Positions 27,999 to 46,500 of a stretch of 64,000 nucleotides of DNA are shown piece after piece. Below the pieces are notes generated by a model. That model saw nothing but the letters and a program-made list of their open reading frames with translations, did not search any database and was not told the DNA's origin. Source of the DNA: an uncultured Actinomycetota bacterium (GTDB taxonomy: Bacteria > Actinomycetota > Actinomycetes > JACCUZ01); contig CAVXNC010000018.1 in assembly GCA_963762865.1 (NCBI GenBank), positions 75,506 to 139,505 on the forward strand, written 5' to 3'. Position 1 is the first letter of the stretch. Each line of letters opens with the position of its first letter. The position numbers and the translations under genes are program-made.

Positions 27999-30500
<2,502 letters not shown>

Positions 30501-30680
30501 TTTCTGCGCTCCTCACGAGAGCGGTCGGGCAGGTGGTGCGACCGACCCCTGTCGAGGGCCGGTCACCTGTCCCTTCGCATGCTAGACCTGCACGCTTACC
30601 GATCTGTTGGTAGTTCCGTAGCTGTGGCTCTGTCGTTCCCGTTGCGTAGTACTCGGCTGCAACTCCCCGGGACCTGACGG

Positions 30681-32068: not shown

Positions 32069-32188
32069 CCGCGGCCGGGCAGCCGGGCGACACCGTCCGA
32101 GCGAACCCGCGAGCCGCCAGGGCCGTCGTCCTTCTGTCGGACGTAGTCCTCGCGAGATGAGCGGGGCCCGACACAGGGGCAGGGGGAA

Positions 32189-32701
32189 GTGATGGACCAC
32201 CGCATGCTGGTTCGAGGGTGGCGGGTCGCAGTCGTCGGTCTCGTCGCCGTGACACTGCTCATCAGCTGGCCGATGAGTCCGGGCGCGTCTGCCGGGGTGC
32301 GGACGCCTAGCGCGACGGCGATCGGCAACACCTACGGCGGACTGTCGGCTCAGCAGCAGCCGCTGATCGTCGACATGACGTCGACCCGACGCAAGGTCGT
32401 GCGCACGGTGATGAACCTCGAGATGACCTGCACGTCGGGCGCCTCGTTCTGGTTCACCGACAGCTACAACGACCTTCCGGTGTCGCGACGCGGGACGTTC
32501 CGGACGTCTTTCGGCCCGGTCACCGAGCGCAACGACGACGGGACGACGTCCGACTTCCAGGGCCGCATCGCCGGCAGCCTCAACGACGCCAGGACCCGGC
32601 TCAACGGCGTCTGGCGGATCGTCATCACCGACCACGACGCAACCGGCGCGTTGACCGACACCTGCGACTCCGGCCTCGTGAGCTGGAAGGCCAAGCAGTA
32701 G
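32189..32701 (+). CDS. Secreted hypothetical protein (signal peptide).
   Basis: An N-terminal signal peptide (RGWRVAVVGLVAVTLLISWPMSPGASA). No recognisable domain. Confidence 0.55.
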   Translation: MMDHRMLVRGWRVAVVGLVAVTLLISWPMSPGASAGVRTPSATAIGNTYGGLSAQQQPLIVDMTSTRRKVVRTVMNLEMTCTSGASFWFTDSYNDLPVSRRGTFRTSFGPVTERNDDGTTSDFQGRIAGSLNDARTRLNGVWRIVITDHDATGALTDTCDSGLVSWKAKQ

Positions 32702-32714
32702 CCGGCAGACCGCG

Positions 32715-32766
32715 CCCGCGCGCGGGTGGGTCTCGACCCGCCCGCGCGCAGGTGGGTCTCAACCCC
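32715..32766. repeat. Two tandem ~26-bp GC-rich units, each containing the palindrome cccgcgcgcggg-like core.
   Basis: cccgcgcgcgggtgggtctcgaccc / cccgcgcgcaggtgggtctcaacccc, directly downstream of the secreted-protein ORF stop. Possible terminator hairpins. Confidence 0.6.
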
Positions 32767-32786
32767 ACCCGGCGGCGGCACACCTA

Positions 32787-32880
32787 GGGTCGACGCCTGG
32801 CTGGAGACGGCCGCCGCTGCGAACGTCACCTATTGGCGGCTGCACACCCCGGACGCCCCGCCCGTCGTCGTCGTCCACCC
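32787..32880. repeat. Diverged chimeric ghost copy joining the GNAT 3' segment (31231-31272) to the SDR 3' end (32021-32066).
   Basis: It encodes VDAWLETAAAANV-TY-WRLHTPDAPPVVVVHP. Compare the GNAT ...VEAWLETAAAANVAYY... and the SDR ...LYWRLHTQPDAPPAVVVHPG. Confidence 0.7.
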
Positions 32881-32884
32881 AAGC

Positions 32885-33859
32885 TCAGTAGCGCAGCTCC
32901 GACAGGTAGCGGTAGCCCACGGTTGCGGTCTGCAGGGGCGTGACGTCGGGCTGGTCGTTCTCCACGATGTACTCGGTCACGGTGTTCGCCTCGAAGATCG
33001 CACCGAAGTCGATGAAGCCGGTGCCAGGGTCGGCGAACGCGTTGCCCGCGTAGGGGTCCAGGCCGGGTTCGCGGTCCTTGACGTGGTACTGCAGGACCCG
33101 CTGAGGCGCCGACGAGATCACCTCGACCGCCCACTGCTCGGCCGTCGCCTCCGTCGCCTGTCCGCTCTGCAGGCCGCCGGTCACCACCCAGAAGAGATCG
33201 GCCTCGAGGTGGACCAGTGCCGGGTCGAGACGGCCGGTCAGGATCTCCCAGGGCAGCTGCCCGTTGTCGAGCACCCGGCTGAACTCGTGCGCGTGGTTGT
33301 GGTAGCCGTAGCGCAGCCCGGCGGCCCGGGCCACGGCGGCCTCGGCGTTCATCTGGTCGGCCAGCCGCTGCCAGTCGGCGGCAACCGCGGAATCGAAGTA
33401 CGGCATGACCATGAAGCGCTGACCGAGGGTGACGGCGTTGCCGACCTTCTCCTCCAGAGCGGCCGCCGAATCGCTGACACCGTCGTGGCTCGAGGACGCC
33501 GCGATCCCGATGCTGTCGAGGAATTCCCGCAGCTCGGCGGCGGTCCGTCCGTAGTAGCCCGCGAGCTCGACCCGCGGGTAGCCGATGTCCGCCAGCGCCC
33601 GCAGGGTGCCGTCGAAGTCGCTCTCCAGGACGGTGCGCAGGGTGTAGAGCTGGATGCTGATCGCCCCGCCCGGCACGCGGTTCCGGCCCGCCGGCCGGGC
33701 GACCGCCTGGGCCGGCCCTGCCGCCGCTCCGAGCCCGCCGGCGCCGAGCACGCTCGCCGCCGCGGCCGCCAGTGCACCGCGCAGCACGCTGCGGCGGTCC
33801 AGGCCACGCTCCTCGAGCGACCTCTCGAGTGCCGCCTGCCCATCAAACCCGAAGCACAT
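32885..33859 (-). CDS. Tat-exported sugar phosphate isomerase/epimerase (xylose isomerase-like TIM barrel).
   Basis: A twin-arginine signal (DRRSVLRGALAAAAASVLGAGG) and a TIM-barrel AP-endonuclease-2-like body. Confidence 0.8.
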   Translation of the reverse strand: MCFGFDGQAALERSLEERGLDRRSVLRGALAAAAASVLGAGGLGAAAGPAQAVARPAGRNRVPGGAISIQLYTLRTVLESDFDGTLRALADIGYPRVELAGYYGRTAAELREFLDSIGIAASSSHDGVSDSAAALEEKVGNAVTLGQRFMVMPYFDSAVAADWQRLADQMNAEAAVARAAGLRYGYHNHAHEFSRVLDNGQLPWEILTGRLDPALVHLEADLFWVVTGGLQSGQATEATAEQWAVEVISSAPQRVLQYHVKDREPGLDPYAGNAFADPGTGFIDFGAIFEANTVTEYIVENDQPDVTPLQTATVGYRYLSELRY

Positions 33860-33927
33860 CGTCGGACTCCCGTCTCGTCGAGGACCGCTCCCGGGCCGGA
33901 TCCCGGTGCGACGGACGCAACGTATGT

Positions 33928-33936
33928 CTGTGACAG
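33928..33936. promoter_or_regulatory. Candidate GntR/FadR-type operator half-palindrome (ctgtgacag) in the divergent lutA promoter region.
   Basis: A t.GT...AC.a-like inverted repeat inside the AT-richer 175-bp intergenic region upstream of lutABC. Confidence 0.25.
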
Positions 33937-34033
33937 GCCAGCACGGAACCCCCTTTTACCGACAAATATCGAAAGTCCCTAGATTGCCGGACAAAGCCGC
34001 CGGTTTACGCTCGCGAGACGGAGGTGTCCTGAC

Positions 34034-34801
34034 ATGCGCATCGCGCTGTTCGTCACCTGCCTGGCCGACGGGCTCTTCCCGCAGGTCGGCAAGGCCACGG
34101 TGACGCTGCTCGAGCGGCTCGGTCACGAGGTGGTCTTCCCCGAGGCGCAGACCTGCTGCGGGCAGATGCACGTCAACACCGGCTACCAGCGGGAGGCGCT
34201 CCCGCTAGTCCGGCACCACGTCGAGGTCTTCGAGCAGTACGACGCCAAAGCCCCGGTCGACGCGATCGTCGCGCCGTCGGGCTCCTGCGTCGGGTCCGTC
34301 CGCCACCAGCACGCGATGCTGGCGCGCCGGGCCGGCGACGGCGAGCTCGGCGACCGGGCCGAGGCACTGGCCGGCCGGACGTACGAGCTCTCGGAGCTGC
34401 TCGTCGACGTCCTCGGCGTCGACGACGTCGGCGCGCACTTCCCGCACCGGGTCACCTACCACCCCACCTGTCACTCGCTGCGGCTGCTGCGGGTCGACGA
34501 CAAGCCGCTGCGCCTGCTGCGAAACGTGCGCGGGCTCGACCTGGTCGAGCTGCCCGACGCCGACCAGTGCTGCGGCTTCGGGGGCACCTTCTCGGTCAAG
34601 AACGCCGACACCTCGACCGCCATGCTGGCCGACAAGATGCGCAACGTGCTCGGCACCGGCGCGGAGGCGGTCACCGCCGGGGACGCGTCCTGCCTGATGC
34701 ACATCGGCGGCGGCCTGTCGCGCCTTCGCACCGGTACCCGGACGCTGCATCTCGCCGAGATCCTGGCCTCGACCGAGGAGCACCCGGCGGTGGCGCTGTG
34801 A
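34034..34801 (+). CDS. lutA: L-lactate utilization protein LutA ((Fe-S)-binding, CCG domains).
   Basis: Two cysteine-rich CCG motifs (CCGQ...CCGFGG). First gene of lutABC. Confidence 0.85.
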   Translation: MRIALFVTCLADGLFPQVGKATVTLLERLGHEVVFPEAQTCCGQMHVNTGYQREALPLVRHHVEVFEQYDAKAPVDAIVAPSGSCVGSVRHQHAMLARRAGDGELGDRAEALAGRTYELSELLVDVLGVDDVGAHFPHRVTYHPTCHSLRLLRVDDKPLRLLRNVRGLDLVELPDADQCCGFGGTFSVKNADTSTAMLADKMRNVLGTGAEAVTAGDASCLMHIGGGLSRLRTGTRTLHLAEILASTEEHPAVAL

Positions 34802-36325
34802 CCGAGAGCCGCACCTTCCTCGGGATGCCCTCGGTCCACGCACCGCGGGGGGTCGGCCAGCTGCGCGCCGAGATCCCGTTCCCCACCGCCGCTCGCACCG
34901 CGCTCGCCGACACCCAGCTGCGCCGCAACATCGGCCACGCCACCCGGACCATCCGGGCCAAGCGCGCCCGCGTGGTCAGCGAGGTGCCGGACTGGGAGGA
35001 GCTGCGGCTCGCCGGCCAGCAGCTCAAGGCCGCCACCATGGCCCGCCTCGACGAGCACCTCGAGCGGCTGGAGCACGAGGTCACCGAGCGCGGCGGCACC
35101 GTCCACTGGGCCCGGGACGCCAACGAGGCCAACGCGATCGTCACCCGCCTGGTGCAGGCAACGGGCGAGCGCGAGGTGGTCAAGGTCAAGTCGATGGTCA
35201 CCCAGGAGATCGGGCTCAACGAGGCGCTCGAGGCGGCCGGCATCGCGGCGTACGAGACCGATCTCGCCGAGCTCATCGTCCAGCTCGGTCACGACAAGCC
35301 GTCGCACATCCTGGTGCCCGCGATCCACCGCAACCGCGCGGAGATCCGGGAGATCTTCCGCCGCGAGATGGGCTCGTGGGGCCTGGCCGCGCCGGACGAC
35401 CTGACCGACGACCCTCGGCGGCTCGCGATGGCAGCCCGGGCGCACCTGCGGCAGAAGTTCCTGACCGCCAAGGTCGGCATCAGCGGCGCCAACTTCGGGG
35501 TCGCCGACACCGGCACGCTGGTCGTCGTCGAGTCCGAGGGCAACGGCCGGATGTGCCTGACCCTGCCGGAGACGCTCATAACCGTGATGGGCATCGAGAA
35601 GGTGGTGCCGACGTGGCGCGACCTCGAGGTCTTCCTGCAGCTGCTGCCACGGTCGTCGACCGGCGAGCGGATGAACCCCTACACGTCGGCGTGGACGGGG
35701 ATCTCCGCGTCGAACGGCATCGTCGACGGACCTCGTCAGTTCCACCTCGTGCTGCTGGACAACGGGCGCACGGCGACCCTCGCCGACGACGTCGGTCGCG
35801 AGGCGCTGCACTGCATCAAGTGCAGCGCCTGCATGAACGTCTGCCCGGTCTACGAGCGCACCGGCGGGCACGCCTACGGGTCGGTCTATCCCGGCCCGAT
35901 CGGCGCGGTGCTGTCGCCGCAGCTGACCGGCGTCGAGGACAACGCGTCGCTGCCCTACGCCTCGTCGCTGTGCGGTGCGTGCTTCGACGCCTGTCCGGTG
36001 CGCATCGACATCCCGTCGATCCTGGTCCACCTGCGCGGCCAGCACGTCGAGGAGCGGCGAGCGGCGTCGCGGGTCCCGTCGGCCGAGCAGGTCGCCATGG
36101 CCGCCGCGTCGTGGGTGATGTCGGACCCGAAGCGCTTCGCCGCGGCGGAGCGGGCCTCCCGGGCGGGCCGCGTGCTCGCCCGCCGCGGGTCCGCGCGGCC
36201 GGATCCGTTCGCTCCCGCCGCCGCTGTCGGCCTGGACGTCGTCGCGCGACGCACCGGCACCACCGCAGGAGACCTTCCGCGAGTGGTGGGCACGCACCCG
36301 CGCCCCCTCAGGCGGCGGGTCGTGA
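34798..36325 (+). CDS. lutB: L-lactate utilization iron-sulfur protein LutB, with an apparent C-terminal frameshift ~36240-36268.
   Basis: Two 4Fe-4S ferredoxin motifs (CIKCSACMNVCP, CGACFDACP). The conserved C-terminus ETFREWWARTR plus the TGA stop at 36323-36325 read in the +1 frame. In the given frame the ORF runs on into lutC. Confidence 0.8.
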
Positions 36326-36972
36326 CCGGCTCAGGTGCCGACGGCGCAGCGCGGGCCGAGGTGCTCCGCCGGATCCGCACGGCCAACGCCCGCGCCGGCG
36401 TGCGGGAGGTGCCGGCCGTCGAGCGCACCTACCGTGCATCCGGCGAGCACCCGCCCGGCTCCCCCGACGTGCTCGACCTCTTCGAGCACCGGCTGGTCGA
36501 CTACAAGGCCTCGGTCACCCGCACCACGGGAGCCGACCTGCGCGACGCCGTCATCGCCACACTGGCCGGCCTGTCTCTCGATCCCGGCCCCGTCCTGCTG
36601 CCGCCTGGCCTGCCCGCCGAGTGGGCGCCGGAGGGCGTACGCGACTCGGGTGACCTCACTGCCGCCGACCTGGACGGGATGGCGGCGGTCGTGACGGCCT
36701 GCACCGTCGGCTGCGCCGAGACCGGCACCATCGTCCTCGACGGGTCGCCGGACCAGGGCCGGCGCGCGATCACGCTGGTCCCTGACGTGCACGTGTGCGT
36801 CGTGCGCGGCGACCAGGTCGTGCACTCCGTCCCGGAGATGCTCGCCCGCGTCGACGGCACCCGCGCCGTCACTCTCGTGAGCGGGCCGTCCGCGACCAGC
36901 GACATCGAGCTGGACCGGGTGGAGGGTGTCCACGGACCGCGCACCCTCGCCGTGATCCTGGTGACCGGCTGA
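36322..36972 (+). CDS. lutC: L-lactate utilization protein LutC.
   Basis: The GTG start overlaps the frame-corrected lutB stop (GTGA). LUD-domain sequence. Confidence 0.75.
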   Translation: MTGSGADGAARAEVLRRIRTANARAGVREVPAVERTYRASGEHPPGSPDVLDLFEHRLVDYKASVTRTTGADLRDAVIATLAGLSLDPGPVLLPPGLPAEWAPEGVRDSGDLTAADLDGMAAVVTACTVGCAETGTIVLDGSPDQGRRAITLVPDVHVCVVRGDQVVHSVPEMLARVDGTRAVTLVSGPSATSDIELDRVEGVHGPRTLAVILVTG

Positions 36973-37040
36973 CTCCACAGTCCGGCTGGGTCCCACATCC
37001 TGCTGCCGATTGTGTCCAAGGTCAGCCGTACCGTCCCGTC

Positions 37041-38795
37041 ATGGACGACGACCCCGAGCCGACAGGCACCACGACCACCCAGGCACCCACCACCGACGCC
37101 GGGGCCACCACCTCGCGCTTCAGTGAGGTTCCGACCGACGCACTGGCGGACCGTCTCTCCCGCTGGGCGTCGAGCCTGGCCGCGGCGGAGTGCGAGTTCC
37201 TCGACCTGCTGGCTGAGTTCGACGCGCGCCAGGCGTGGGGCGAGTCCGGGATGCGATCCACGGCTCACTGGCTGTCGTGGCGGCTCGGGCTGCGCCTGGG
37301 TGTCGCGCGGGAGAAGGTGCGAGTGGCCCGGGCCCTGCAGCGGCTGCCACTGGTCCACGACGAGTTCGCGGCCGGCACGTTGTCCTACTGCAAGGTGCGC
37401 GCGCTGAGCAGGGTCGCCACCGACGCGACCGAGGCGGAGCTGGTCCACATCGCCCGCGGCGCGACCGGGGCGCAGCTCGAGACCGTCGTGCGGCAGTGGC
37501 GGCGGACCCTGATCGGCGACACAACGGCGTCCTCGCACATCCGTCGCGGTCTCCGGAAGCGGATCGAGGACGACGGGTCCTACGTCGTCACCGTCCGGCT
37601 GTCCCCGGTCGAGGGACCGGTCTTCGCGAAGGCAATCGCCCTCGCCCGCACCTCCGTCCTGGACGAGGCCGGCCAGGTCGTCGAGACCCCGGAGGAGGCC
37701 GCGCTGGCTGACGCGCTCGCCGAGGACTCTCCCTGGGAGCGCTCCGAAGCCGACGCCTTCGTGCTGATCGCCTCGTCGTTCCTGGCCCACGGACCATCCG
37801 GCGAGGCCGGCGACCGGCACCTCGTCCTGGTCCACGCCGACATCGACACGCTCGCCGAGGCGTGTCGCAGCGCAGCGGACGCTGGTGGCCCGGCGGACGC
37901 GGGTGGAGCCGCTGGCGAGCCGTCCAGCAACGGTTCCGCGGAAACGTCGTCGCCAGCGGAAGACTCCCCCGATCGAGACACCGACGAGCGATCCCGAAGC
38001 GTCTCCGCGGAAACGTCCGGGCTCACGCAGCCCGGCTTTGCCGCCCACGAGCCGATCGCTGCGAGCGGGTCCGTGCACCAGGAGTCCTACGCCCGCCGGC
38101 CGGCTACCTGCGTCACCGAGGACGGTCAGCCGATCTCGGCCAGCACCGTGCTGCGCATGCTGTGCGACTCACCGGCCCAGTTGCTCGTCACCGCGCGCGA
38201 CGGCCGACCACTCGACCTCGGCCGGACCAGCCGCAACGCCGACCGTCGCCAGCGCCGCGCCATACGTGTTCGCGACGGCGGCTTCTGCCGGTTCCCCGGC
38301 TGCTCCCAGCGCCACCGCCTCATCCCGCACCACACCCGGTGGTGGAGCCGCGGCGGGCGGACCGATCTCGACCTCCTGGTCAGCGTGTGTCCCACGCACC
38401 ACCTGGCGGTCCACGAGCTGGGCTACGACGTCACCGCTCTCGGCGGTGGCCGCTTCGCCTGGTACCGGCCGGACGGCCAGGAGATCAGCGCGGCACCGAC
38501 GCTCGGCGACGAGGTGGCGACGTCGCCCGGCTCGGTCGTTGGGCCGGCGGCTGCGGCGGGCGACTCGTCGCGGTCCGGCGGGCAGCGGATCGTGCCGATG
38601 TGGGGCGGCGAGCGGATCGACCTCGACCACCTGCTCGGCGGGATGGCCGCCAACCTGCTCAACGACGCCGGCCACCGTCTCACCGACATCCCCTACTCCG
38701 CACTCGACCAGACCCTGCGGACGGCAGCCGGATGGCCGGCCGCACAGCCCGGCCACCGACCATTCGACGGTCCGCGGGACGCGAACGCCGCCTGA
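37041..38795 (+). CDS. DUF222 domain-containing HNH endonuclease (REP13E12-like).
   Basis: DUF222 N-terminal region and a C-terminal HNH motif (CRFPGCSQRHRLIPHHTRWW...CPTHH). An intact paralog-type relative of the pseudogene at 4256-5600. Confidence 0.8.
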   Translation: MDDDPEPTGTTTTQAPTTDAGATTSRFSEVPTDALADRLSRWASSLAAAECEFLDLLAEFDARQAWGESGMRSTAHWLSWRLGLRLGVAREKVRVARALQRLPLVHDEFAAGTLSYCKVRALSRVATDATEAELVHIARGATGAQLETVVRQWRRTLIGDTTASSHIRRGLRKRIEDDGSYVVTVRLSPVEGPVFAKAIALARTSVLDEAGQVVETPEEAALADALAEDSPWERSEADAFVLIASSFLAHGPSGEAGDRHLVLVHADIDTLAEACRSAADAGGPADAGGAAGEPSSNGSAETSSPAEDSPDRDTDERSRSVSAETSGLTQPGFAAHEPIAASGSVHQESYARRPATCVTEDGQPISASTVLRMLCDSPAQLLVTARDGRPLDLGRTSRNADRRQRRAIRVRDGGFCRFPGCSQRHRLIPHHTRWWSRGGRTDLDLLVSVCPTHHLAVHELGYDVTALGGGRFAWYRPDGQEISAAPTLGDEVATSPGSVVGPAAAAGDSSRSGGQRIVPMWGGERIDLDHLLGGMAANLLNDAGHRLTDIPYSALDQTLRTAAGWPAAQPGHRPFDGPRDANAA

Positions 38796-38831
38796 CCCCG
38801 CTGCTGCCGTGAGACGGCGGCGCACCTAGAT

Positions 38832-39497
38832 GTGTTCGAGAACCCGCTCGTCACGGGCGACAGCTTCGGGTTCGGTCACCGCCCCGACGCCGACCACGCG
38901 GCTGCCGTGCTCGACATGGTGACCGCGGTCCACGGCGCACCCGCCCGGGTCATGGACCTCGCGCCGGTTGACGACTTCGCCATCCCGCACCGGGACCAGG
39001 TCGAGGCGGCTCTGAACGGTGAGGCCGTCGACGGCGCTGCGGGACCGTACGCCCTCGAGACGGCCCGCCTCGTCACCCGGCACGGCCCCGCGATCCGGGC
39101 GGCACTGCACCGCTACGACGAGCTCGTCTCAGCGGCACTGTCGGCGCGCGGCCGCGCCGTCCTCACCCATGGCGAGCCGCACCCCGGCAACACGATGCGC
39201 ACCGGCGCCGGATGGGTCCTCATCGACTGGGACACCGCCCGCGTCGCACCGCCCGAGCGCGACCTGTGGAGCCTGGACCCGGGGGACGGGTCGGTCCACG
39301 CGGCCTACACCGCAGGCACCGGGACGGAGCTGCGGCCCCGGCTGCTGGAGCTCTACCGCAGGCGGTGGGACCTGGCGGACGTCGCGGTGGACGTCGCCAG
39401 GTTCCGCCGCCGCCACGTCGGCAGCGCTGAGGACTCGAAGTCCTTCGAGATCCTCGGCGCGCAGCTGGCCGGCCTCGCCGGGCTCGACGACCGCTAG
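38832..39497 (+). CDS. Phosphotransferase (APH/choline-kinase-like) family protein, N-terminally truncated.
   Basis: The catalytic-loop region is present (HGEPHPGNTMRTGAGWVLIDWDTARVAPPERDLWSL) but the N-terminal ATP-binding lobe is missing. The frame opens immediately after the HNH gene stop. Confidence 0.55.
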   Translation: MFENPLVTGDSFGFGHRPDADHAAAVLDMVTAVHGAPARVMDLAPVDDFAIPHRDQVEAALNGEAVDGAAGPYALETARLVTRHGPAIRAALHRYDELVSAALSARGRAVLTHGEPHPGNTMRTGAGWVLIDWDTARVAPPERDLWSLDPGDGSVHAAYTAGTGTELRPRLLELYRRRWDLADVAVDVARFRRRHVGSAEDSKSFEILGAQLAGLAGLDDR

Positions 39498-39826
39498 GCG
39501 CCGGGCATCGGCAGCAGCTCGAACACCTCGACCTGGAACCGACCCTTGCCCTCGGCCAGGAACGGGTGCTTGTCGGCGAGGGCCGCCGCTGCGTCGAGCG
39601 AGTCTGCCTCGACGACCGAGTAGCCGTTCTGGTCGCTGGGCGTGCCCTTGGTGCCGTCGTCGACCACGGCCGTGCCCGCACCGATCGGCTGGCCCGGGTC
39701 GACCAGCGCGGCACCGACGCGGTCCATCCACGCGCCCCACGCCGCCAGCTGCTCGGCGCCCTGCTCCGGCGTGAAGTCCTCCATCGGGGTCGCCGGGCCG
39801 CGGTAGAGGAACAAGTACTTCGCCAT
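39494..39826 (-). CDS. YciI-like (DGPF/YCII-related) domain protein.
   Basis: A ~110-aa ORF beginning MAKYLFLYRGP. Confidence 0.65.
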   Translation of the reverse strand: MAKYLFLYRGPATPMEDFTPEQGAEQLAAWGAWMDRVGAALVDPGQPIGAGTAVVDDGTKGTPSDQNGYSVVEADSLDAAAALADKHPFLAEGKGRFQVEVFELLPMPGA

Positions 39827-40041
39827 CTCGGTCTCCTTCCACGCGAGCGCGCCGTCCGCGCCCGTCACCCTTCCGACGACCGGCAAGGCGCCGGATCGAC
39901 AACCTCGCCCCAGACTCTGCGCCACACCTGCGCACCCGGGAAGCCCTCGGAGCGTGCGAGCACGGACATCTCTCGCGGGATCACGGTCAGGACCAGCACG
40001 TCGTACGCCCGACCACGGCCCGGCAGGCCAGACTCGGGGTC

Positions 40042-40395
40042 ATGGACCTGCGATGGGACGCCGTGACCGTTGACTGCCGCGACCCCCACGAGCTGGCGAG
40101 GTTCTGGTGCGCGCTGCTCGGGGTGGAGGTCCGGGGCACCTGGGAGCAGTACGTCGGACTGACGCCGACTGCACCGGGGCTCCCGAGGCTGGTGTTCCAG
40201 AGGACGTCGGATCCTCGCCCGGCGAAGAACACGTTGCACCTGGACCTGCACGTGCCGGCGGACGACCTGCCCGGCGCCGTCGAGCGGGCCATGTCGCTCG
40301 GGGCGTCGATGGTGCACCAGCACGACGAGGACGCGGTGAGCTGGCGGACCCTGGCCGACCCGGAGGGCAACGTCTTCTGCCTGGTGGCCGACTGA
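40042..40395 (+). CDS. VOC (glyoxalase/bleomycin resistance) family protein.
   Basis: 117 aa with a glyoxalase-like fold (ELARFWCALLGVEV...EGNVFCLV). Confidence 0.75.
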   Translation: MDLRWDAVTVDCRDPHELARFWCALLGVEVRGTWEQYVGLTPTAPGLPRLVFQRTSDPRPAKNTLHLDLHVPADDLPGAVERAMSLGASMVHQHDEDAVSWRTLADPEGNVFCLVAD

Positions 40396-40446
40396 CCGGG
40401 TTGGGGCAGCCGGTCCCGGGCCAGCCAGCCGTCGCGCCCCCAGCGG

Positions 40447-40733
40447 GCTCAGTGCGCCTTGTCGTAGGCCTCGATGATGGTCGCCGGGATGCGGCCGCGC
40501 TCGTTGACCTTGTGGCCGTTGGACCGGGCCCACTCGCGGATCTCGGCGGTGCGGTTGTCGCCGCCACGACGCGCCCGGCCTCGACTGCTGCCACGCCCGC
40601 CCGAGGAGCGGCCACCGACCCGACGGGCCTGCCCGACGTACTGCCCGAAGGCGTCCCGCATCTTCCCGGCGTTCTTGGCGCTCAGGTCGATCTCGTAGGA
40701 GACGCCGTCGAGGGAGAAGGACACGGTCTCGTC
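40447..40733. repeat. 287-bp direct repeat, copy A (lsr2 3' segment).
   Basis: Near-identical (2 mismatches) to 41321-41607. Confidence 0.85.
40449..40733 (-). pseudogene. Truncated duplicate of the lsr2 3' portion (C-terminal ~95 codons).
   Basis: A 287-bp direct repeat of lsr2 codons 18-112 (two mismatches versus 41321-41607). The N-terminal dimerisation strand is replaced by unrelated Arg-rich sequence. Confidence 0.55.
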
Positions 40734-40807
40734 GCTGATCCTGTGGTGGCTGTTGCGTAAGGTGTGGGACTGGTGAGACCTTCTAGATCTCGAACGCGGC
40801 GCTGCTA

Positions 40808-41035
40808 GTGTGGCTCGCCCCAGTAGTCGGGCTCGGCAACGTCCCGGCCGCAGTCGGTGGCTCAAGCGCGGCTGCCGCAGTAGTGCGGCAAGTAGGTCTG
40901 GACGATATGGCGCCGGTGACCACGAGACTGGCGATCCCGCTGACGCCGGTGATCGTGGCGGCACTCCTCCTGGTGGTCGCCGACACCGTTCGTACGGGGA
41001 CGCGGATGCGCGCCGACCTCGAAGGCCTGGTGTGA
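40808..41035 (+). CDS. Possible small membrane protein (fragment of a DUF2975-like partner?); low confidence.
   Basis: A hydrophobic C-terminal stretch (MAPVTTRLAIPLTPVIVAALLLVVADTV) immediately upstream of the XRE HTH gene. Confidence 0.3.
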   Translation: MWLAPVVGLGNVPAAVGGSSAAAAVVRQVGLDDMAPVTTRLAIPLTPVIVAALLLVVADTVRTGTRMRADLEGLV

Positions 41036-41074
41036 GAGGCCGAGTCTCTGCGCGACCAGGCCCCGGGGGGTCTG

Positions 41075-41296
41075 ATGCCCGTCGAGGATCCGCAGTGCGT
41101 CGATTGCCATCTCGACGAGCTGCTCGAGCATCGCGACATGACGCTGATCGAGCTGGCCGACCGCGTCGGCGTCACGGTGGTCAACCTGAGCGTGCTCAAG
41201 AACGACCGGGCGAAGGCGGTGCGCTTCTCTACCCTCACGGCGCTGTGCGACGTCCTCAGCTGCCAGCCCGGCGACATCTTCAGCGTGGAGGACTGA
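41075..41296 (+). CDS. XRE-family helix-turn-helix transcriptional regulator (small Cro/C1-type).
   Basis: 73 aa with the HTH LIELADRVGVTVVNLSVLKNDRAKAVRFSTLTALCDVLSCQPGDIF, typical of the short HTH family usually paired with a DUF2975 membrane protein. Confidence 0.7.
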   Translation: MPVEDPQCVDCHLDELLEHRDMTLIELADRVGVTVVNLSVLKNDRAKAVRFSTLTALCDVLSCQPGDIFSVED

Positions 41297-41320
41297 CGGA
41301 GCTCTAGCGCCGGTGCAGCC

Positions 41321-41607
41321 GCTCAGTGCGCCTTGTCGTAGGCCTCGATGATGGTCGCCGGGATGCGGCCGCGCTCGTTGACCTTGTGGCCGTTGGACCG
41401 GGCCCACTCGCGGATCTCGGCGGTGCGGTTGTCGCCGCCACGACGCGCCCGGCCACGACTGCTGCCACGCCCGCCCGAGGAGCGGCCACCGACCCGGCGG
41501 GCCTGCCCGACGTACTGCCCGAAGGCGTCCCGCATCTTCCCGGCGTTCTTGGCGCTCAGGTCGATCTCGTAGGAGACGCCGTCGAGGGAGAAGGACACGG
41601 TCTCGTC
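41321..41607. repeat. 287-bp direct repeat, copy B (within intact lsr2).
   Basis: Near-identical to 40447-40733, offset 874 bp. Confidence 0.85.
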
Positions 41608-41661
41608 CGCCGTTCCCCCGTCGATGTCGTCGACCAGCAGGACGGTGACTTTCTGCGCCAT
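41323..41661 (-). CDS. lsr2: Nucleoid-associated protein Lsr2.
   Basis: 112 aa ([16 protein letters not shown]...[16 protein letters not shown]). Canonical Lsr2 with an RGR AT-hook. AT-rich upstream region. Confidence 0.9.
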
Positions 41662-41785: not shown

Positions 41786-41902
41786 CTATTCCGCCTCGCG
41801 GTGGTCCTCTTCAGAATCCGCCCGCTTCTTCACCGCGATGACGATGGCGACGAATGCGGCACCGACGACTACCGGCGGCAACAGGGCGGCGAGGACGTCC
41901 AT
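41786..41902 (-). CDS. Possible 38-aa single-TM membrane peptide translationally coupled to lysS; low confidence.
   Basis: The ATG overlaps the lysS TGA (TGATG). Sequence [38 protein letters not shown]. Confidence 0.3.
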
Positions 41903-43386
41903 CAGCCGGATTCCGGACGGAGCAGCGGAAATGCAATCGTCTCGCGGATCGACTTTCCGGTGAGAAGCATGATCAGCCGGTCGATTCCCAGGCCCATTCC
42001 GCCCTGGGGCGGCATCCCGAACTCCATGGCCCGCAGGAAGTCCTCGTCCAGCTGCATTGCCTCCTGGTCGCCGCCAGCAGCCTTCAGTGACTGCTCCTCG
42101 AGCCGACGGCGCTGCTCGACCGGGTCGTTGAGCTCGGAGTAGGCCGGGGCCAGCTCGACGCCGTTGACGATCAGGTCCCAGGCCTCCACCAGCCCGGGCA
42201 CCGACCGGTGCGGCTTGGCGAGCGGCTTGACCTCGGCCGGGTAGTCGGTGACGAAGGTCGGCCGCCGCAGGTCGTGCTCCACGAGCTGCTCGTAGAGCTC
42301 GACGACGATCTCCGCCGCGTGCCACGACTGCTGCAGCGCGACGTCGTGCCGGTCGGCGATCTTGCGCAGCGCGTCGACCGGGGTCTGCAGGTCGACCTGC
42401 TCGCCGACCGCGCGGGACACCGCCTCGAGGATCGGCAGCCGTTCCCAGCCGTCGGCCAGGTCGATCTGACCGCCAGCTCCGTCGGGCACGACCGTCGTCC
42501 CGAGCAACGCCTGTGCGGCGTCGAGCACGATCTCGCGGGTGAGCTCGGCCATCGAGTCGTAGTCGCCGTAGGCCTGGTAGACCTCGAGCATCGTGAACTC
42601 GGGGCTGTGGGTGCTGTCGACGCCCTCGTTGCGGAAGTTGCGGCCGATCTCGTAGACCCGGTCGAGCCCGCCGACGACCAGCCGCTTGAGGTAGAGCTCG
42701 ATGGCGATCCGCAGGTACATCTGCTGGTCGAAGGCGTTGAGGTGCGTGGCGAACGGCCGGGCCGCCGCGCCGCCGTGCAGCGGCTGCAGCATCGGCGTCT
42801 CCACCTCGAGGAAGCCGTGCCGGTCGAGCGTCGCGCGGACCGAGCGAAGCACCGTCGCCCGGGCCCGGATCATGTCGCGCGACTCGGCGTTGACGGCCAG
42901 GTCGACGTAGCGCAGCCGGACGCGCGCCTCCGGGTCCTGCAGTCCCTTGTGCTTGTCAGGCAGCGGCCGTAGCGCCTTGGCGACCATGGTCCAGCTGTCG
43001 GCGAGCACCGAGAGCTCACCGCGCTTGCTGGAGATGACCTCGCCCTCGACCCCAACGTGGTCTCCGAGGTCGACGTCACCCTTCCAGTGCGCCAGCTGCT
43101 CCTCGCCGACCTTGTCGAGCGAGATCATCACCTGCACCTCGCCGGTGCCGTCGCGCAGCGTGGCGAAGCAGAGCTTGCCCCCGACGCGGGAGAGGACGAC
43201 CCGGCCGACGACGGCCGCGCGCTCGCCGGAGTGCTGGTCGACCTCGAGGTCGGCGTGCTCCGCGCGCAGGTCCGCGATGGTCGTCGTCCTCGCGACCGTC
43301 ACCGGGTAGGGCTCGACACCGCGCTCGCGCATCCGGTCGAGCTTCTCCCGGCGGACCCGCATCTGCTCGGGCAGCTCGTCGCTCAC
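41902..43386 (-). CDS. lysS: Lysine--tRNA ligase (class II).
   Basis: 494 aa with class II aaRS motifs and an OB anticodon-binding N-terminus. Confidence 0.95.
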
Positions 43387-43495: not shown

Positions 43496-43939
43496 TCAGC
43501 GGAACGGGTCGCTGACCTCCCGGAGCCTGGCGAGGGCTCGGCGCAGCTGTGACATGCCGCGGACCCCCAGGTGCTCGGTCCACTCCGCCTCGACTGCCTC
43601 GACCGCGGCGGCGGCCACCGGCGCCGCCGCCCTGCCCCGGCGCCCGATCCGCACCAGCCGGGCGCGCGCGTCGGTCGGGTCGGGCACCCGTTCGACGTAG
43701 CCGGCGCTCTCGAGCTGGTCCACGAGGAAGCCAGCGGTCTGCTTGGTCACCTGCGCTGCCGCGGCCAGCTCCGACAGGCGGGTGCCGCCCGGACCGATCC
43801 GCTGGAAGACCCGCGCCTGCGCCAGGGTGATGTCGTCGAAGCCTGCATCGGCCACCGCCTCCAGCACCCGCGACTCCATCGCGCGGTAGGAGACGAAGAG
43901 CAGCACCCCGACGTTCGGCTCGTCGTCCGTCGTCGCCAT
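43496..43939 (-). CDS. MarR family transcriptional regulator.
   Basis: A winged-HTH MarR sequence (LTLAQARVFQRI...RLSELAAAAQVTKQTAGFLVDQLESAGYVERVPDPTDARA). Confidence 0.8.
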   Translation of the reverse strand: MATTDDEPNVGVLLFVSYRAMESRVLEAVADAGFDDITLAQARVFQRIGPGGTRLSELAAAAQVTKQTAGFLVDQLESAGYVERVPDPTDARARLVRIGRRGRAAAPVAAAAVEAVEAEWTEHLGVRGMSQLRRALARLREVSDPFR

Positions 43940-44013
43940 GGCCCTCCTTGACAGCAATCCGGTCGAGCACTATTGATAGTCAGATAATCTTACTACTTTG
44001 GTACGAGGTCAGC
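43940..44013. promoter_or_regulatory. AT-rich divergent promoter/operator region between marR and the DinB-superfamily gene.
   Basis: A 74-bp spacer (cttgacagcaatcc...ctattgatagtcagataatcttactactttgg) with a -35-like TTGACA. Much lower GC than the surroundings. Confidence 0.4.
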
Positions 44014-44679
44014 GTGGGCCGTCCGCAGGCATGGCAGGTCATCAGCCGCGAACGCGCGCGCCTCGCCGACCTGCTCGACAGCCTCACGCCGGCGGAGTGG
44101 GAACACCCCTCGCTGTGCGCCGGGTGGACGGTCAAGCACACGGCCGCCCACGTGATCTCCTCGCCGCAGGCCACACCATGGGACGTCGGCGTCGCTCTGC
44201 TGCGGGCCCGAGGAAGCTTCGACAGGTGCATCGACGAGCAGGCCCGGAGATGGGCGGACCGGCCGACCGAGCAGATCGTCGCCGACTACCGCCGCCTCGA
44301 CGGGTCCCAGCGCCACCCGATCGGCACGACGTACTACGAGCCGCTGCTCGACGTGCTGGTGCACAGCCAGGACATCGCGATCCCGCTGCAGCGCGACCAC
44401 GACATGCCGGTCGACGCCGCGCGCGCCGCGGCCGACCGCGTGTGGCGACGCGCGTTTCCCTTCCGTGCGCGCAGCCGCCTGGCCGGTCTGCGGCTCAGGG
44501 CGACCGACACGGACTGGGCGGTGGGCGAGCGAGCGGCAGCGGGCGGACTGGGGGGACCGGTCGTCGAGGGCACCATGGCGGACCTGCTACTGCTGCTGAC
44601 CGGGCGCCCGGTGGTGCTGCCCCGTCTCACCGGTCCGGGCGTCGAGCTGCTGCGGGAGCGCGTCCGACCCACCCGTTGA
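44014..44679 (+). CDS. DinB-superfamily protein (mycothiol-dependent maleylpyruvate isomerase N-terminal domain, TIGR03083-like).
   Basis: The GTG start is divergent from marR. Contains the conserved WTVKHTAAHV motif. Confidence 0.7.
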   Translation: MGRPQAWQVISRERARLADLLDSLTPAEWEHPSLCAGWTVKHTAAHVISSPQATPWDVGVALLRARGSFDRCIDEQARRWADRPTEQIVADYRRLDGSQRHPIGTTYYEPLLDVLVHSQDIAIPLQRDHDMPVDAARAAADRVWRRAFPFRARSRLAGLRLRATDTDWAVGERAAAGGLGGPVVEGTMADLLLLLTGRPVVLPRLTGPGVELLRERVRPTR

Positions 44680-44770: not shown

Positions 44771-45571
44771 CTAGGGGCGGTTGCGCTCGAAGACCAGCCG
44801 GAGCCCGACCAGCGTCAGCCACGGCTCGTGCAGGTCGATGACGCCGGACTCGTCGAGCACCATCGTGGCCAGCCCGCCGGTGGCGATGACCGTGACGTCC
44901 CCCGGGTCACCGTCGGGGCCGACGATCTCGGCGGACATCCGGGTCACGACACCGTCCACCTGACCGGCGAAGCCGTAGAGGATGCCCGCCTGCAGCGCCT
45001 CGACCGTGTTGCGCCCGATGACCGACCGGGGCCGGGCGAGCTCCACCCGGCGCAGCTGCGCGCCCCGGGCGCCCAGCGCCTCCACCGAGATCTCGATGCC
45101 GGGCGCGATGGCGCCGCCGAGGTACTCCCCCTTCGCCGACACCGCGTCGAAGGTGGTCGCGGTCCCGAAGTCGACCACGATGCACGGGCCGCCGACCAGG
45201 TCGACCGCCGCCAGCGCGTTGACGACACGGTCGGTGCCGACCTCCTTCGGGTTGTCGGTGAGAACCGGGACACCGGTGCGCACGCCAGGCTCGACGACGA
45301 CGGCCGGCACGCCGGCGTAGTAGCGCTGGCACATGTCGCGCATCTCGTGCAGCACCGACGGCACGGTCGAGCACAGCGAGATGCCGTCCACGACCGCGAC
45401 ACCGGGACCGGACGGCGCGTGGTTCTGGGCCAGCAGCCCGTGCAGCACGACCGCGATCTCGTCAGCGGTGCGGTGCGACTCGGTCGCGATCCGCCAGTGC
45501 TCGACGAGGTCCGTGCCGTCGAAGAGGCCGAGCACCGTGTGCGTGTTGCCGACGTCGATCGCGAGCAGCAT
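44771..45571 (-). CDS. coaX: Type III pantothenate kinase.
   Basis: Starts MLLAIDVGNTHTV, with the ATG overlapping the nadC stop (ATGA). An ASKHA-fold sequence. Confidence 0.85.
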   Translation of the reverse strand: MLLAIDVGNTHTVLGLFDGTDLVEHWRIATESHRTADEIAVVLHGLLAQNHAPSGPGVAVVDGISLCSTVPSVLHEMRDMCQRYYAGVPAVVVEPGVRTGVPVLTDNPKEVGTDRVVNALAAVDLVGGPCIVVDFGTATTFDAVSAKGEYLGGAIAPGIEISVEALGARGAQLRRVELARPRSVIGRNTVEALQAGILYGFAGQVDGVVTRMSAEIVGPDGDPGDVTVIATGGLATMVLDESGVIDLHEPWLTLVGLRLVFERNRP

Positions 45572-46500
45572 CAGGGCCCCTCCCTCAGGTCGCAGGCGAT
45601 GTCCAGGATCGGGGCCGAGTGGGTGAGCGCGCCGACCGCGAGGTAGTCGACGCCGGTCTCGGCGACCTCGCGGGCGTTGTCCAGCCGCAGCCCGCCGCTG
45701 GCCTCGAGCCGCGCCCGGCCGGCGACCAGCTCGACCGCTCGGCGCATCTGCTCGACCGGCATGTTGTCCAGCAGCACGAGGTCCGCACCGGCCTCGACCG
45801 CCTCGATGACGTCCTCGACCGAGTCGCCCTCCACCTCCACCGGCACCTCGGGGAAGGCAGCCCGCACCGCGCGGAACGCCTCGGCGACGCCGCCCGCCGC
45901 GACCACGTGGTTGTCCTTGACCATCGCCGCGTCCGAGAGGGACATCCGGTGGTTGACGCCACCGCCGCACCGGACGGCGTACTTCTCCAGCACCCGCAGC
46001 CCCGGAGTCGTCTTGCGGGTGTCGCGCACCGCCGCACCGGTGCCGTCGACCGCGTCGACCCACCGCCTGGTCAGGGTGGCGATGCCTGAGAGGCGGCAGA
46101 GCAGGTTGAGGGCGGTGCGCTCCCCGGTGAGCAGCCCGCGCGTCGCGCCGGTCAGCGACATCAGCACGTCTCCGCGGCGGACCTGCGCACCGTCCTCGAC
46201 GAGCCAGCGGGTCAGGACGGCGTCATCGGTCGTCACGTCGAAGACAGCGGCCGCGACCGCGAGCCCGGCTACGACCCCGTCGGCGCGCGCGACGAGGTCC
46301 GCGGTCGACTCCTGGTCGAAGGGCACGGTGGCCACGCTGGTCACGTCGACGCCGCCGTCGAGGTCCTCCTCGAGGGCGCGGGTGACGACGTCGAGGACGT
46401 ACGTCGCGTCAAGCCCGGCAGTCACCAGCCGGGCGGCCGTGTCGTCGGACAGGCTCGCCGGTGTCCCCGGCCCGTTCGCACTGGGTCCAGCCGCAGTCAT
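45571..46500 (-). CDS. nadC: Nicotinate-nucleotide pyrophosphorylase (carboxylating).
   Basis: A quinolinate phosphoribosyltransferase sequence. The start ATG overlaps the nadB stop (ATGA). Confidence 0.9.
   Translation of the reverse strand: MTAAGPSANGPGTPASLSDDTAARLVTAGLDATYVLDVVTRALEEDLDGGVDVTSVATVPFDQESTADLVARADGVVAGLAVAAAVFDVTTDDAVLTRWLVEDGAQVRRGDVLMSLTGATRGLLTGERTALNLLCRLSGIATLTRRWVDAVDGTGAAVRDTRKTTPGLRVLEKYAVRCGGGVNHRMSLSDAAMVKDNHVVAAGGVAEAFRAVRAAFPEVPVEVEGDSVEDVIEAVEAGADLVLLDNMPVEQMRRAVELVAGRARLEASGGLRLDNAREVAETGVDYLAVGALTHSAPILDIACDLREGP

Follow-up and report, generated by a model that had tools for sequence, protein, structure and literature searches.

The lsr2 locus and its direct repeat

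The window, by which we mean the whole 64-kb stretch of DNA that was analysed, carries an intact lsr2 gene on the minus strand (41323..41661), whose open reading frame translates into a protein of 112 aa. This protein matched the Pfam family Lsr2 (PF11774) with 100.2 bits over profile positions 1-58 of 58, representing a full-length N-terminal dimerisation/oligomerisation domain, as well as Lsr2_DNA-bd (PF23359) with 66.3 bits over positions 3-37 of 37, and its translation contains the stretch NERGRIP, in which the RGR motif is present. The gene lies in the conserved actinobacterial context, with lysS (41902..43386, minus strand) as the conserved adjoining neighbour upstream and clpC nearby; in the window the gene for a ClpC-type ATPase is found at 27999-30500, and ~10.8 kb of variable DNA lies between it and lsr2. 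An ORF encoding a 38-aa protein with a single TM segment is located between lysS and lsr2 (41786..41902, minus strand) and belongs to the conserved ancestral backbone, being called as a gene in the relatives L082 and L084-L087, with 87-100% identity in tblastn. On the other side, a Glyoxalase_6 gene (40042..40395, plus strand; Pfam, 107.6 bits), which stands beside lsr2 in relatives, is the ancestral convergent neighbour of lsr2. The native spacer between these two convergent genes (40396..40448) is conserved in alignments with relatives, and it now lies 3' of a truncated lsr2 copy, not of the intact gene. A GC-rich hairpin in this spacer folded no better than shuffled sequences (z = -0.14).

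A repeat search of the 64-kb window revealed a direct repeat of 287 nt with copies at 40447-40733 (A1) and 41321-41607 (A2), both read on the minus strand as lsr2, with a start-to-start spacing of 874; besides this family, no second repeat of at least 100 nt was found in the window. When the copies were compared base by base, 285 of the 287 positions were identical, the differences being two substitutions (T at 40581 vs A at 41455, and A at 40623 vs G at 41497) with no indels, and identity dropped off sharply at either end of the repeat. Both mismatches are synonymous, since the translations are identical from D19 to H112. The original prediction, made from the letters of this DNA, had placed a 287-bp direct repeat of 99% identity at these positions and had assigned the downstream copy to an intact lsr2, and on both points it was borne out. 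It had further equated the repeat with lsr2 codons 18-112, of which the end at codon 112 stands, whereas the start is codon 19 and the stop codon plus 2 nt are also included.

Copy A2 constitutes the 3' 287 bp of the intact gene, which has retained its native 5' region and no longer has its native 3' flank. Copy A1, a 5'-truncated lsr2 remnant with its stop codon at 40449-40451, remains attached to that native 3' flank. It is missing codons 1-18 and any start codon at the junction, and it retains positions 18-58 of 58 of the Pfam Lsr2 profile together with the complete Lsr2_DNA-bd domain. The upstream copy had been described as lacking the N-terminal dimerisation segment and being fused to unrelated sequence; the truncation and the fusion are correct, but only Pfam positions 1-17 of 58 are lost, not the whole domain.

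The segment between the repeat copies

The two copies enclose a segment of 587 bp (40734..41320; segment B), which no relative contains and which occurs once in the window. It had been characterised as lower in GC, and it is, but mildly so (67.1% vs 72.6% for the window), and the regulator gene that it carries has a GC3 of 0.92, equal to that of host genes. This gene (41075..41296, plus strand) is intact and encodes a 73-aa XRE-type HTH_26 regulator (PF13443, 68.7 bits against a cut-off of 22, profile positions 1-61 of 63), and it converges on lsr2 across a gap of 26 nt. Ahead of it lies the remnant of a gene for a DUF2975-like membrane protein (40735..41035, plus strand), comprising the C-terminal half of a protein of ~203 aa from residue ~104 onwards; the homology sets in at 40735, a single base in from the junction. 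Damage to the remnant consists of a +1 frameshift at ~40765-40771 and an in-frame TAG at 40784-40786. In its raw form it gave no match to PF11188, and after repair it scored 22.5 bits over positions 37-127 of 130, below the cut-off of 27 bits; two of its homologues (d171 and d88) scored above the cut-off, with 30.3 and 31.3 bits. In tblastn, the remnant matched the DUF2975 proteins encoded next to the best HTH homologues with E = 3e-19 to 4e-19, which, along with the HTH_26 score, supports the predicted pairing of an XRE-family HTH gene with a truncated DUF2975 partner.

Between the DUF2975 stop and the HTH start, a stretch of ~39 nt (41024..41062, plus strand) was predicted to fold into a strong hairpin (-36.9 kcal/mol, z = -3.43, with 0 of 200 shuffles as good). 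This stretch is missing at homologous loci, where, as seen in the L090 sequence, the DUF2975 and HTH genes overlap. Neither segment B nor the spacers gave an Rfam match, segment B had no tRNA match, no tRNA or tmRNA gene was found in the window, and a terminator consensus was not found in the insert or the spacers.

The best non-self homologues of the HTH protein are 82-84% identical to it, and its 90% cluster has one member, from one contig. At the five loci examined for four of the best homologues (L088-L090, L171 and L172), the HTH gene is not beside lsr2. The top homologue in a database of 5.8 billion proteins, P0124 (82%), is encoded at L090, where the gene immediately upstream is a glyoxalase homologue with 77% amino acid identity to that of the window, and therefore the DUF2975-HTH pair occurs at the same variable spot in a related lineage. 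This HTH gene was found near lsr2 in none of 80 genome loci (distant context), and a degenerate pattern describing an HTH 3' end that converges on an lsr2 3' end had 0 matches in a metagenome collection. Neither the insert, with its DUF2975 remnant and HTH gene only, nor the neighbouring glyoxalase and lsr2 genes include a transposase, integrase or recombinase gene. Terminal inverted repeats were not found at the insert ends, the duplication being 287 bp, and phage and plasmid collections contained no match to the insert; only lsr2 itself was matched, at 66-75% identity among the matches listed.

Ancestral order in relatives and origin of the rearrangement

The comparison set consisted of ten metagenome contigs from ten different samples with 82-98% nucleotide identity to the window (about 95-98% for L081-L087, 92-94% for L091 and 82-89% for L092). 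Comparing the lsr2 locus with that of close relatives had been proposed as a check in the original prediction; when it was run, all ten contigs were found to have one lsr2 only, with the native spacer after it, and the arrangement described here was found in the genome of the window only. In the nine contigs long enough to include it (L081-L084, L086, L087 and L091-L093), the glyoxalase gene comes directly next; L085 ends in the spacer. The BLAST alignments of the relatives to the window were split in two, one piece extending to 40733 and the other from 41321 (the right-hand breakpoint falling at 41316 in two contigs and at ~41270 for L091), with homology extending to the left of 40733 across the spacer and into the glyoxalase gene, and to the right of 41321. 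Because homology breaks at 40733 and 41321, the window represents the derived state, an 874-bp insertion-duplication, and the ancestral order is lysS, 38-aa ORF and lsr2, the last convergent with the glyoxalase gene across a spacer of ~53 nt. Counted against L081, the nearest relative, each copy shows 4 substitutions and a GGC indel; A1 and A2 are each other's closest relatives, and the event is therefore recent and lineage-specific. A scan of species-representative genomes with Lsr2 found none closer than 76% amino acid identity, and exact matching of the lsr2 and HTH proteins of the window pointed to no recorded contig.

We consider it likely that the locus is a real, recent and lineage-specific structural variant, in which one illegitimate-recombination event with fragment capture produced the 874-bp insertion-duplication and left a non-functional lsr2 remnant. 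It is an ordinary strain-specific rearrangement scar. During this event, a 587-bp fragment would have been cut from a DUF2975-HTH_26 operon, reaching from about DUF2975 codon 104 to 24 nt past the HTH stop, and 287 bp of lsr2, from codon 19 to 2 nt past the stop, would have been copied to either side of the captured fragment. The routes that we favour are staggered-break fill-in with fragment capture and replicative template switching, either of which would make both junctions de novo; given the five HTH-homologue loci, none of them beside lsr2, and the metagenome pattern search with its 0 matches, both junctions are probably new. As the donor of the 587 bp was not found and the best homologue is only 84% identical, it is from the topology alone that we infer the mechanism. 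As a consequence, lsr2 survives intact with its own promoter and 5' region and has lost its native 3' flank; the duplication is what let DNA land inside lsr2 without destroying the gene. The variant would be unstable, in that RecA-mediated recombination between the 287-bp direct repeats would excise the insert, leaving precisely the ancestral locus. The locus thus offers a clean, datable insertion-duplication beside an important nucleoid gene, and the ancestral state is on record from ten relatives. Within the lineage of the window, the lsr2-clpC interval is a hot spot of such events, and the relevance of the case lies mainly in annotation and in the interpretation of genome scars.

That the repeat ends 2 nt beyond the lsr2 stop is mildly coincidental if breaks fall at random, and fits better with a donor in which the HTH gene already lay beside lsr2. 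An unlikely alternative is recombination between haplotypes, in which a very close donor carried DUF2975-HTH immediately downstream of lsr2 and a donor fragment (the DUF2975 3' half, HTH and lsr2) entered a genome of the ancestral order, either through a homologous crossover in or to the right of lsr2 combined with an illegitimate join at codon 18/19, or through circularisation and a single Campbell-type crossover within the 287 bp. The repeat end would then be the homology boundary between the haplotypes, the A-B-A topology, with lsr2 intact in one copy and 5'-truncated in the other, is precisely what single-crossover integration of a circle with the 3' part of a gene yields, and the position of the pair in L090, directly downstream of a glyoxalase homologue, is in keeping with such a donor. 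However, the pattern search, the 80 genome loci and the five HTH-homologue loci yielded no contig in which HTH converges on lsr2, the order is ancestral in ten of ten relatives, and, with A1 and A2 more alike than either is to any relative, the donor would have to stand nearer to the recipient than every strain sampled.

It is quite improbable that the contig was mis-joined via the conserved lsr2 3' region or a chimeric read, so that the arrangement exists in no cell. All of the closest genomes are MAGs, and the closest sequences come from metagenome contigs. A MAG with co-occurring strains is thus a plausible source; lsr2 is highly conserved among those strains, and no second genome has the arrangement. 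On the other hand, the copies differ at two positions and were therefore assembled as distinct sequences, and to pass through the repeat twice an assembly needs reads that carry the junction between lsr2 codon 19 and mid-DUF2975, which no mixture of the known haplotypes would supply. The spacer is, in addition, unique sequence with host-like codon usage, and genes elsewhere are in good order, lysS for example being intact.

There is very little to recommend the reverse polarity, in which the window preserves the older state and the relatives with a single lsr2 arose, possibly many times, by recombination between the 287-bp repeats while gene conversion kept the copies alike. Deletion between direct repeats does give exactly the single-copy order of the relatives, and the DUF2975 remnant is decayed, with its frameshift and stop codon. 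Yet the single-copy order is found even at 82-89% identity (L092 and L093), the window nests among strains at 96-98%, and an unstable 287-bp repeat would have to last across this whole depth in one lineage only.

Further candidates were rejected. A distant horizontal donor, considered on account of the lower GC, was rejected because of the host-like GC3 (0.92) of the HTH gene, and a tandem duplication of an A+B unit because B is present once only. A mobile element or prophage remnant was rejected since neither a recombinase or inverted repeat nor a tRNA gene was found, and phage and plasmid collections had no match to the insert. Nor was a homeologous crossover convincing: the 3' ends of the glyoxalase and HTH genes, which both lie immediately ahead of a repeat copy, share a similarity of 31 nt, but an equally good score was reached by 4.6% of random 100-mers of genomic sequence.

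The truncated copy and comparison with known systems

On the source contig of 179,629 bp, a public gene caller had predicted a 91-aa ORF within the truncated copy (protein P0121; 40449..40724, minus strand) that begins with a GTG at V22. Upstream of this ORF, the 20 nt ACAGGATCAGCGACGAGACC include no good Shine-Dalgarno sequence; a properly spaced one is likewise missing ahead of each of the four in-frame starts (40964, 40865, 40724 and 40661). A scan found no consensus promoter for the truncated copy, which is weak evidence in high-GC actinobacteria, where leaderless promoters and promoters deviating from the sigma-70 consensus are common. No database protein spans the truncated-copy junction, and the extra lsr2 copy is absent from all ten contigs of the relatives. 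The copy looks like a non-functional remnant, and from these signals we infer that it is not expressed; at most, it would be transcribed by read-through from lsr2, and the 91-aa ORF is probably untranslated. In all likelihood P0121 is a pseudogene fragment and has no place in a count of Lsr2 paralogues.

For the copy to be functional, read-through from lsr2, whose native 3' flank is gone, would have to transcribe it by crossing the insert and translation would have to start at the GTG at 40724, giving a 91-aa Lsr2 that caps Lsr2 filaments or competes with them, which we regard as very unlikely. This protein would have lost the N-terminal oligomerisation strand and the Asp-Asp loop and would have kept the beta-beta-alpha dimer core and the DNA-binding domain. 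Consistent with function, the frame is open with 0 amino acid changes relative to the intact gene, the public caller predicted a 91-aa protein from it, and there is no obvious terminator between the two lsr2 copies. In Lsr2, an extended N-terminal strand links dimers into chains and D28-R45 forms the dimer salt bridge (PMC3374832); the truncated copy retains the equivalents of D28 and R45 and has lost the chain-linking strand. Against function, with only two changes in 287 bp the fact that both are synonymous has no statistical weight; neither a usable ribosome-binding site nor a usable promoter was found, and the variant is present in one genome only. Moreover, the published dominant-negative Lsr2 needs intact oligomerisation together with dead DNA binding, as in R86A, which does not bind DNA and is able to oligomerise, whereas dimerisation-defective mutants were inert and not dominant negative (PMC2367712). 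The suggestion that the duplication generates a meaningful dominant-negative or DNA-binding-only Lsr2 fragment hence found no support, in view of the missing start, ribosome-binding-site and promoter signals, the occurrence in one genome only, and R86A being the opposite type of variant. Equally doubtful is a role for the 91-aa Lsr2 as a natural chain-terminating modulator, which would pair with full-length Lsr2 and bind DNA without extending the filament and for which recombination between the repeats would serve as the off-switch. Should the fragment be expressed after all, which is improbable, the xenogeneic silencer Lsr2 would have a natural modulator.

The insert resembles known pairs of DUF2975 and HTH_26/XRE genes in gene order and family assignments, and its homologues show the overlap type of coupling; it differs from them in that its DUF2975 gene is halved and pseudogenised and a 39-nt hairpin precedes the HTH gene. 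H-NST, a truncated member of the H-NS family, is a silencer antagonist. As with this protein and Lsr2 R86A, a partial silencer such as the window's fragment could in principle interfere with the full-length protein, but these antagonists keep the oligomerisation part without DNA binding, whereas the fragment is the reverse and has no expression signals.

With regard to the rearrangement, integrative elements at gene 3' ends (classically those of tRNA and tmRNA genes) likewise leave a displaced 3' end on the downstream flank, a gene completed by the insert-side copy and a repeat that ends just past the gene; the window's insert, in contrast, has no integrase, excisionase or element-sized cargo and consists of a gene fragment and one small regulator only. 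Campbell-type insertion-duplication, in which a non-replicating circle bearing the 3' part of a gene integrates, produces the same series of intact copy, insert and 5'-truncated copy, with repeats that correspond to the cloned homology and with reversal by recombination between them, but the window contains no vector-like or replicon sequence, the circle would be only 874 bp, and no donor with HTH-lsr2 linkage was found. The duplication of 287 bp is also far longer than the target-site duplications of transposons. In staggered-break fill-in with fragment capture (NHEJ-type) or in template switching, a target is duplicated around unrelated DNA with arbitrary ends, as is the case here with one end in mid-DUF2975 and the other 24 nt past the HTH stop, and actinobacteria possess Ku and LigD for repair of the NHEJ type.

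The lsr2 repeat and the ancestral locus

A single long repeat was found in the window, consisting of two copies in direct orientation, A1 (40447-40733) and A2 (41321-41607), each 287 nt in length and with their starts 874 nt apart. A base-by-base comparison showed that the copies are identical at 285 of 287 positions, with a sharp loss of match at either end, and that they differ at 40581 (T, versus A at 41455) and 40623 (A, versus G at 41497); since the two copies translate identically, both differences are synonymous. A2 belongs to an intact lsr2 gene (41323..41661, minus strand) encoding a 112-aa protein that matches Pfam Lsr2 with 100.2 bits over profile positions 1-58 of 58 and Lsr2_DNA-bd with 66.3 bits. 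This gene encodes a bona fide Lsr2, and the second copy did not pass as a functional member of the family. The repeat spans lsr2 codons 19-112, the stop codon and 2 nt. A direct repeat of 287 nt is far beyond chance, and the predicted duplication of the lsr2 3' end was borne out at the coordinates claimed, except that the repeat had been assigned to codons 18-112, one codon too early. Among close relatives (L081-L093), the Arg/Gly-rich linker of Lsr2 (window 41380-41480) carries GGC-type 3-nt indels, giving proteins of 110, 112 or 113 aa, a variation that probably reflects slippage in the repetitive linker.

Three of the window's own proteins, the 112-aa Lsr2 (P0001), the HTH protein of the insert (P0123) and a 91-aa protein predicted on the truncated copy (P0121), occur in the public protein collection, all assigned to the same 179,629-bp NCBI/ENA contig. 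The lsr2 site of relatives was compared on ten metagenome contigs from ten separate samples, which were reached through near-identical Lsr2 proteins (L081-L087) or through a glyoxalase-protein scan (L091-L093). All ten showed the gene order lysS, 38-aa ORF and lsr2, followed by a native spacer that led directly to a Glyoxalase_6 gene in the nine contigs reaching far enough (all but L085) and, in the longer ones, on into YCII; none of the ten contained the insert or a second lsr2 piece. Nucleotide identity to the window by BLAST was 95-98% for L081-L087, 92-94% for L091 and 82-89% for L092. The alignments of the relatives to the window always fell into two blocks, one stopping at 40733 and the other at 41321, with the end of the second block lying at 41316 in two contigs and at ~41270 in L091. 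The sequence after A1 aligned with the relatives' native lsr2-glyoxalase spacer, and the sequence after A2 was unrelated to it. Because the relatives are single-copy, their alignments split at the repeat and the native spacer follows A1, the single-copy order is ancestral and the 874-bp insertion-duplication of the window is derived. A1 and A2 are separated by 2 substitutions and no indels, versus 4 substitutions and a GGC indel between the nearest relative, L081, and each copy, and the other relatives are more distant. The copies are thus each other's closest relatives, and the duplication happened after the lineage parted from all the strains sampled, unless a still closer donor took part.

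The last ~30 nt of the glyoxalase and HTH genes are alike (40366-40396, GGCAACGTCTTCTGCCTGGTGGCCGACTGAC, versus 41269-41297, GGCGACATCTTCAGCGTGGAGGACTGAC), and each of these 3' ends sits just before one repeat copy; because of this similarity, the L091 alignment runs ~50 nt into the insert. Equally good scores were obtained for 4.6% of random genomic 100-mers, and the similarity may be due to chance.

Content and source of the 587-bp insert

The 587 bp between the copies (40734-41320) carry an intact HTH_26/XRE gene (41075-41296, plus strand; 73 aa; HTH_26, 68.7 bits), upstream of which, also on the plus strand, lies a remnant of a membrane-protein gene. By tblastn, 40772-41032 aligned with the C-terminal halves of proteins whose genes immediately precede those of the closest HTH homologues (E = 3e-19 to 4e-19); in a different frame, 40735-40764 (LILWWLLRKV) aligned with homologue residues ~104-113 (LLLWRLLRAV), and therefore the membrane-protein homology begins one base inside the junction. 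The coding frame of the remnant is broken twice, by a +1 frameshift near 40765-40771 and by a TAG codon in frame at 40784-40786. Two of its homologues passed the DUF2975 gathering score, and the repaired remnant reached 22.5 bits against a cut-off of 27. Given this homology to the DUF2975 neighbours of HTH homologues, the insert was rightly described as a DUF2975 + HTH pair in truncated form. The HTH and lsr2 stop codons are convergent, with 26 nt between them. The GC content is 67.1% for the insert and 72.6% for the window, the GC3 of the HTH gene (0.92) equals that of lsr2, lysS and the glyoxalase gene, and the insert DNA is compositionally not foreign.

A strong hairpin (41024-41062; -36.9 kcal/mol, z = -3.43, equalled by none of 200 shuffles) sits in a ~39-nt stretch running from the DUF2975 remnant stop codon to the HTH start codon. 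This stretch is missing from the homologous loci L090, L171 and L172, where the DUF2975 and HTH genes overlap, and the hairpin may have been inserted as a small palindromic element, or may act in regulation or termination.

No second copy of the insert was present elsewhere in the window. The 90% cluster of the HTH protein has one member from one contig, and its best non-self homologues are 82-84% identical. The HTH-homologue loci (L088-L090, L171 and L172) showed the usual DUF2975-HTH pair in varied contexts, in none of which lsr2 was beside the pair. The L090 pair comes immediately after a glyoxalase homologue (77% aa identity to that of the window), an arrangement which hints that such a pair can sit at this variable position in a lineage related to this one. 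The metagenome collection gave no match to a degenerate pattern in which the 3' ends of HTH and lsr2 genes converge within 20-50 nt, the phage and plasmid collections yielded matches to lsr2 itself only (66-75% identity among the matches listed), and no tRNA gene, Rfam family, inverted repeat, transposase or integrase was found.

Fate of the copies and neighbouring rearrangements

The intact lsr2 gene has kept its 5' region, but the 3' flank native to it now lies behind the truncated copy. Since no terminator-like feature was found between the two lsr2 copies, read-through from lsr2 across the HTH gene, in antisense, into A1 is plausible. In the truncated copy, in-frame start codons occur at 40964, 40865, 40724 and 40661, but no Shine-Dalgarno sequence at the proper spacing precedes any of these four, and a search for a consensus promoter found none. 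If translated from V22, the product would lack the conserved Asp-Asp loop and the extended N-terminal strand, which joins Lsr2 dimers into chains (PMC3374832), and would retain the beta-beta-alpha core and the DNA-binding domain. The original prediction envisaged a possible dominant-negative fragment, but such behaviour is not expected of this kind of fragment, because the published dominant-negative Lsr2 (R86A) is DNA-binding-dead and oligomerisation-competent, and dimerisation-defective mutants showed no dominant negativity (PMC2367712). It is very unlikely that the fragment is functional; overall, the observation was confirmed and its interpretation partly supported. In the source record, the truncated copy appears as a 91-aa call (P0121) that groups with true Lsr2 proteins; although probably a pseudogene fragment, it is likely to be carried forward into annotations as 'Lsr2 family protein'. 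Recombination between the 287-bp direct repeats should delete the insert and restore the ancestral locus, which fits the variant being young and rare.

The window is longer than contigs L094 and L092 by a ~6.1-kb segment (32702-38841). It encodes an AP_endonuc_2/TIM-barrel protein (32885-33859, minus strand), LutA-like (CCG domain) and LutB-like (LUD + 4Fe-4S) proteins (34034-36972) and a DUF222 protein (36795-38795) of a type to which annotations usually give the name HNH endonuclease. The insertion deletes the first third of an APH phosphotransferase gene, and the ORF at 38832-39497 matches Pfam APH from profile position 94 on only. At ~1.6 kb from the lsr2 event, this segment represents another rearrangement specific to the strain. 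In length, the direct repeat at 31231-31320 and 32787-32876 ranks second in the window, and ~47 nt of the 3' part of a GNAT acetyltransferase gene (30681-31376) recur near-identically 86 bp inside the left edge of the segment; being another short gene-fragment duplicate at an insertion boundary, this suggests the same kind of illegitimate event.

From a ClpC-type ATPase gene (27999-30500) to lsr2 the window spans ~10.8 kb, and the content of this interval varies in relatives. The glyoxalase gene adjoins lsr2 in close relatives, 3.8-5.3 kb of other genes (glycosyltransferase, ABC transporter, MerR, DUF222) separate the two in the loci of more distant relatives (L001-L003), and a GT2/GtrA-like gene lies downstream of the glyoxalase gene in L094 and L098, with no lsr2 within these contigs. 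The lsr2-ClpC interval (30500-41320) looks like a local hot spot for indels. Between lysS and a type III pantothenate kinase gene (44771-46063) lie a MarR-family gene (43496-43957, minus strand) and an MDMPI-family gene (43948-44679, plus strand); in L001-L003, lysS adjoins the kinase gene.

Origin of the insertion-duplication

The product has the topology A-B-A (intact gene, insert, 5'-truncated copy), and we infer that it arose by one of three routes that can yield it. In the first, the overhangs of a staggered break would be filled in and a stray fragment ligated between them, or replicative template switching would give the same product. DNA inserted at codon 18/19 would ruin lsr2 unless the duplication extended at least to the stop codon, so that survivors would be expected to look like this locus. 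The main rival comprises homology-facilitated illegitimate recombination and Campbell-type integration with the HTH gene already linked to lsr2 in the incoming DNA; either would account neatly for a repeat ending 2 nt past the lsr2 stop codon, but both require a donor haplotype, and because no trace of one was found we favour the first route. It is improbable that the repeat arrangement is an assembly artefact: the source is probably a MAG, since its near neighbours are all MAGs or metagenome contigs, but two mismatches distinguish A1 from A2, the sequence of the insert is unique and host-like, and double passage of the repeat needs reads with a new junction, from lsr2 codon 19 to mid-DUF2975, which no mix of known haplotypes could supply.

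The event in the window works like Campbell-type insertion-duplication, or like long target-site duplication with fragment capture. Its likeness to elements that integrate at gene 3' ends is one of topology only, because every defining feature of mobile elements that was tested proved absent. The locus adds one more case to a known kind of rearrangement scar and does not constitute a new system.
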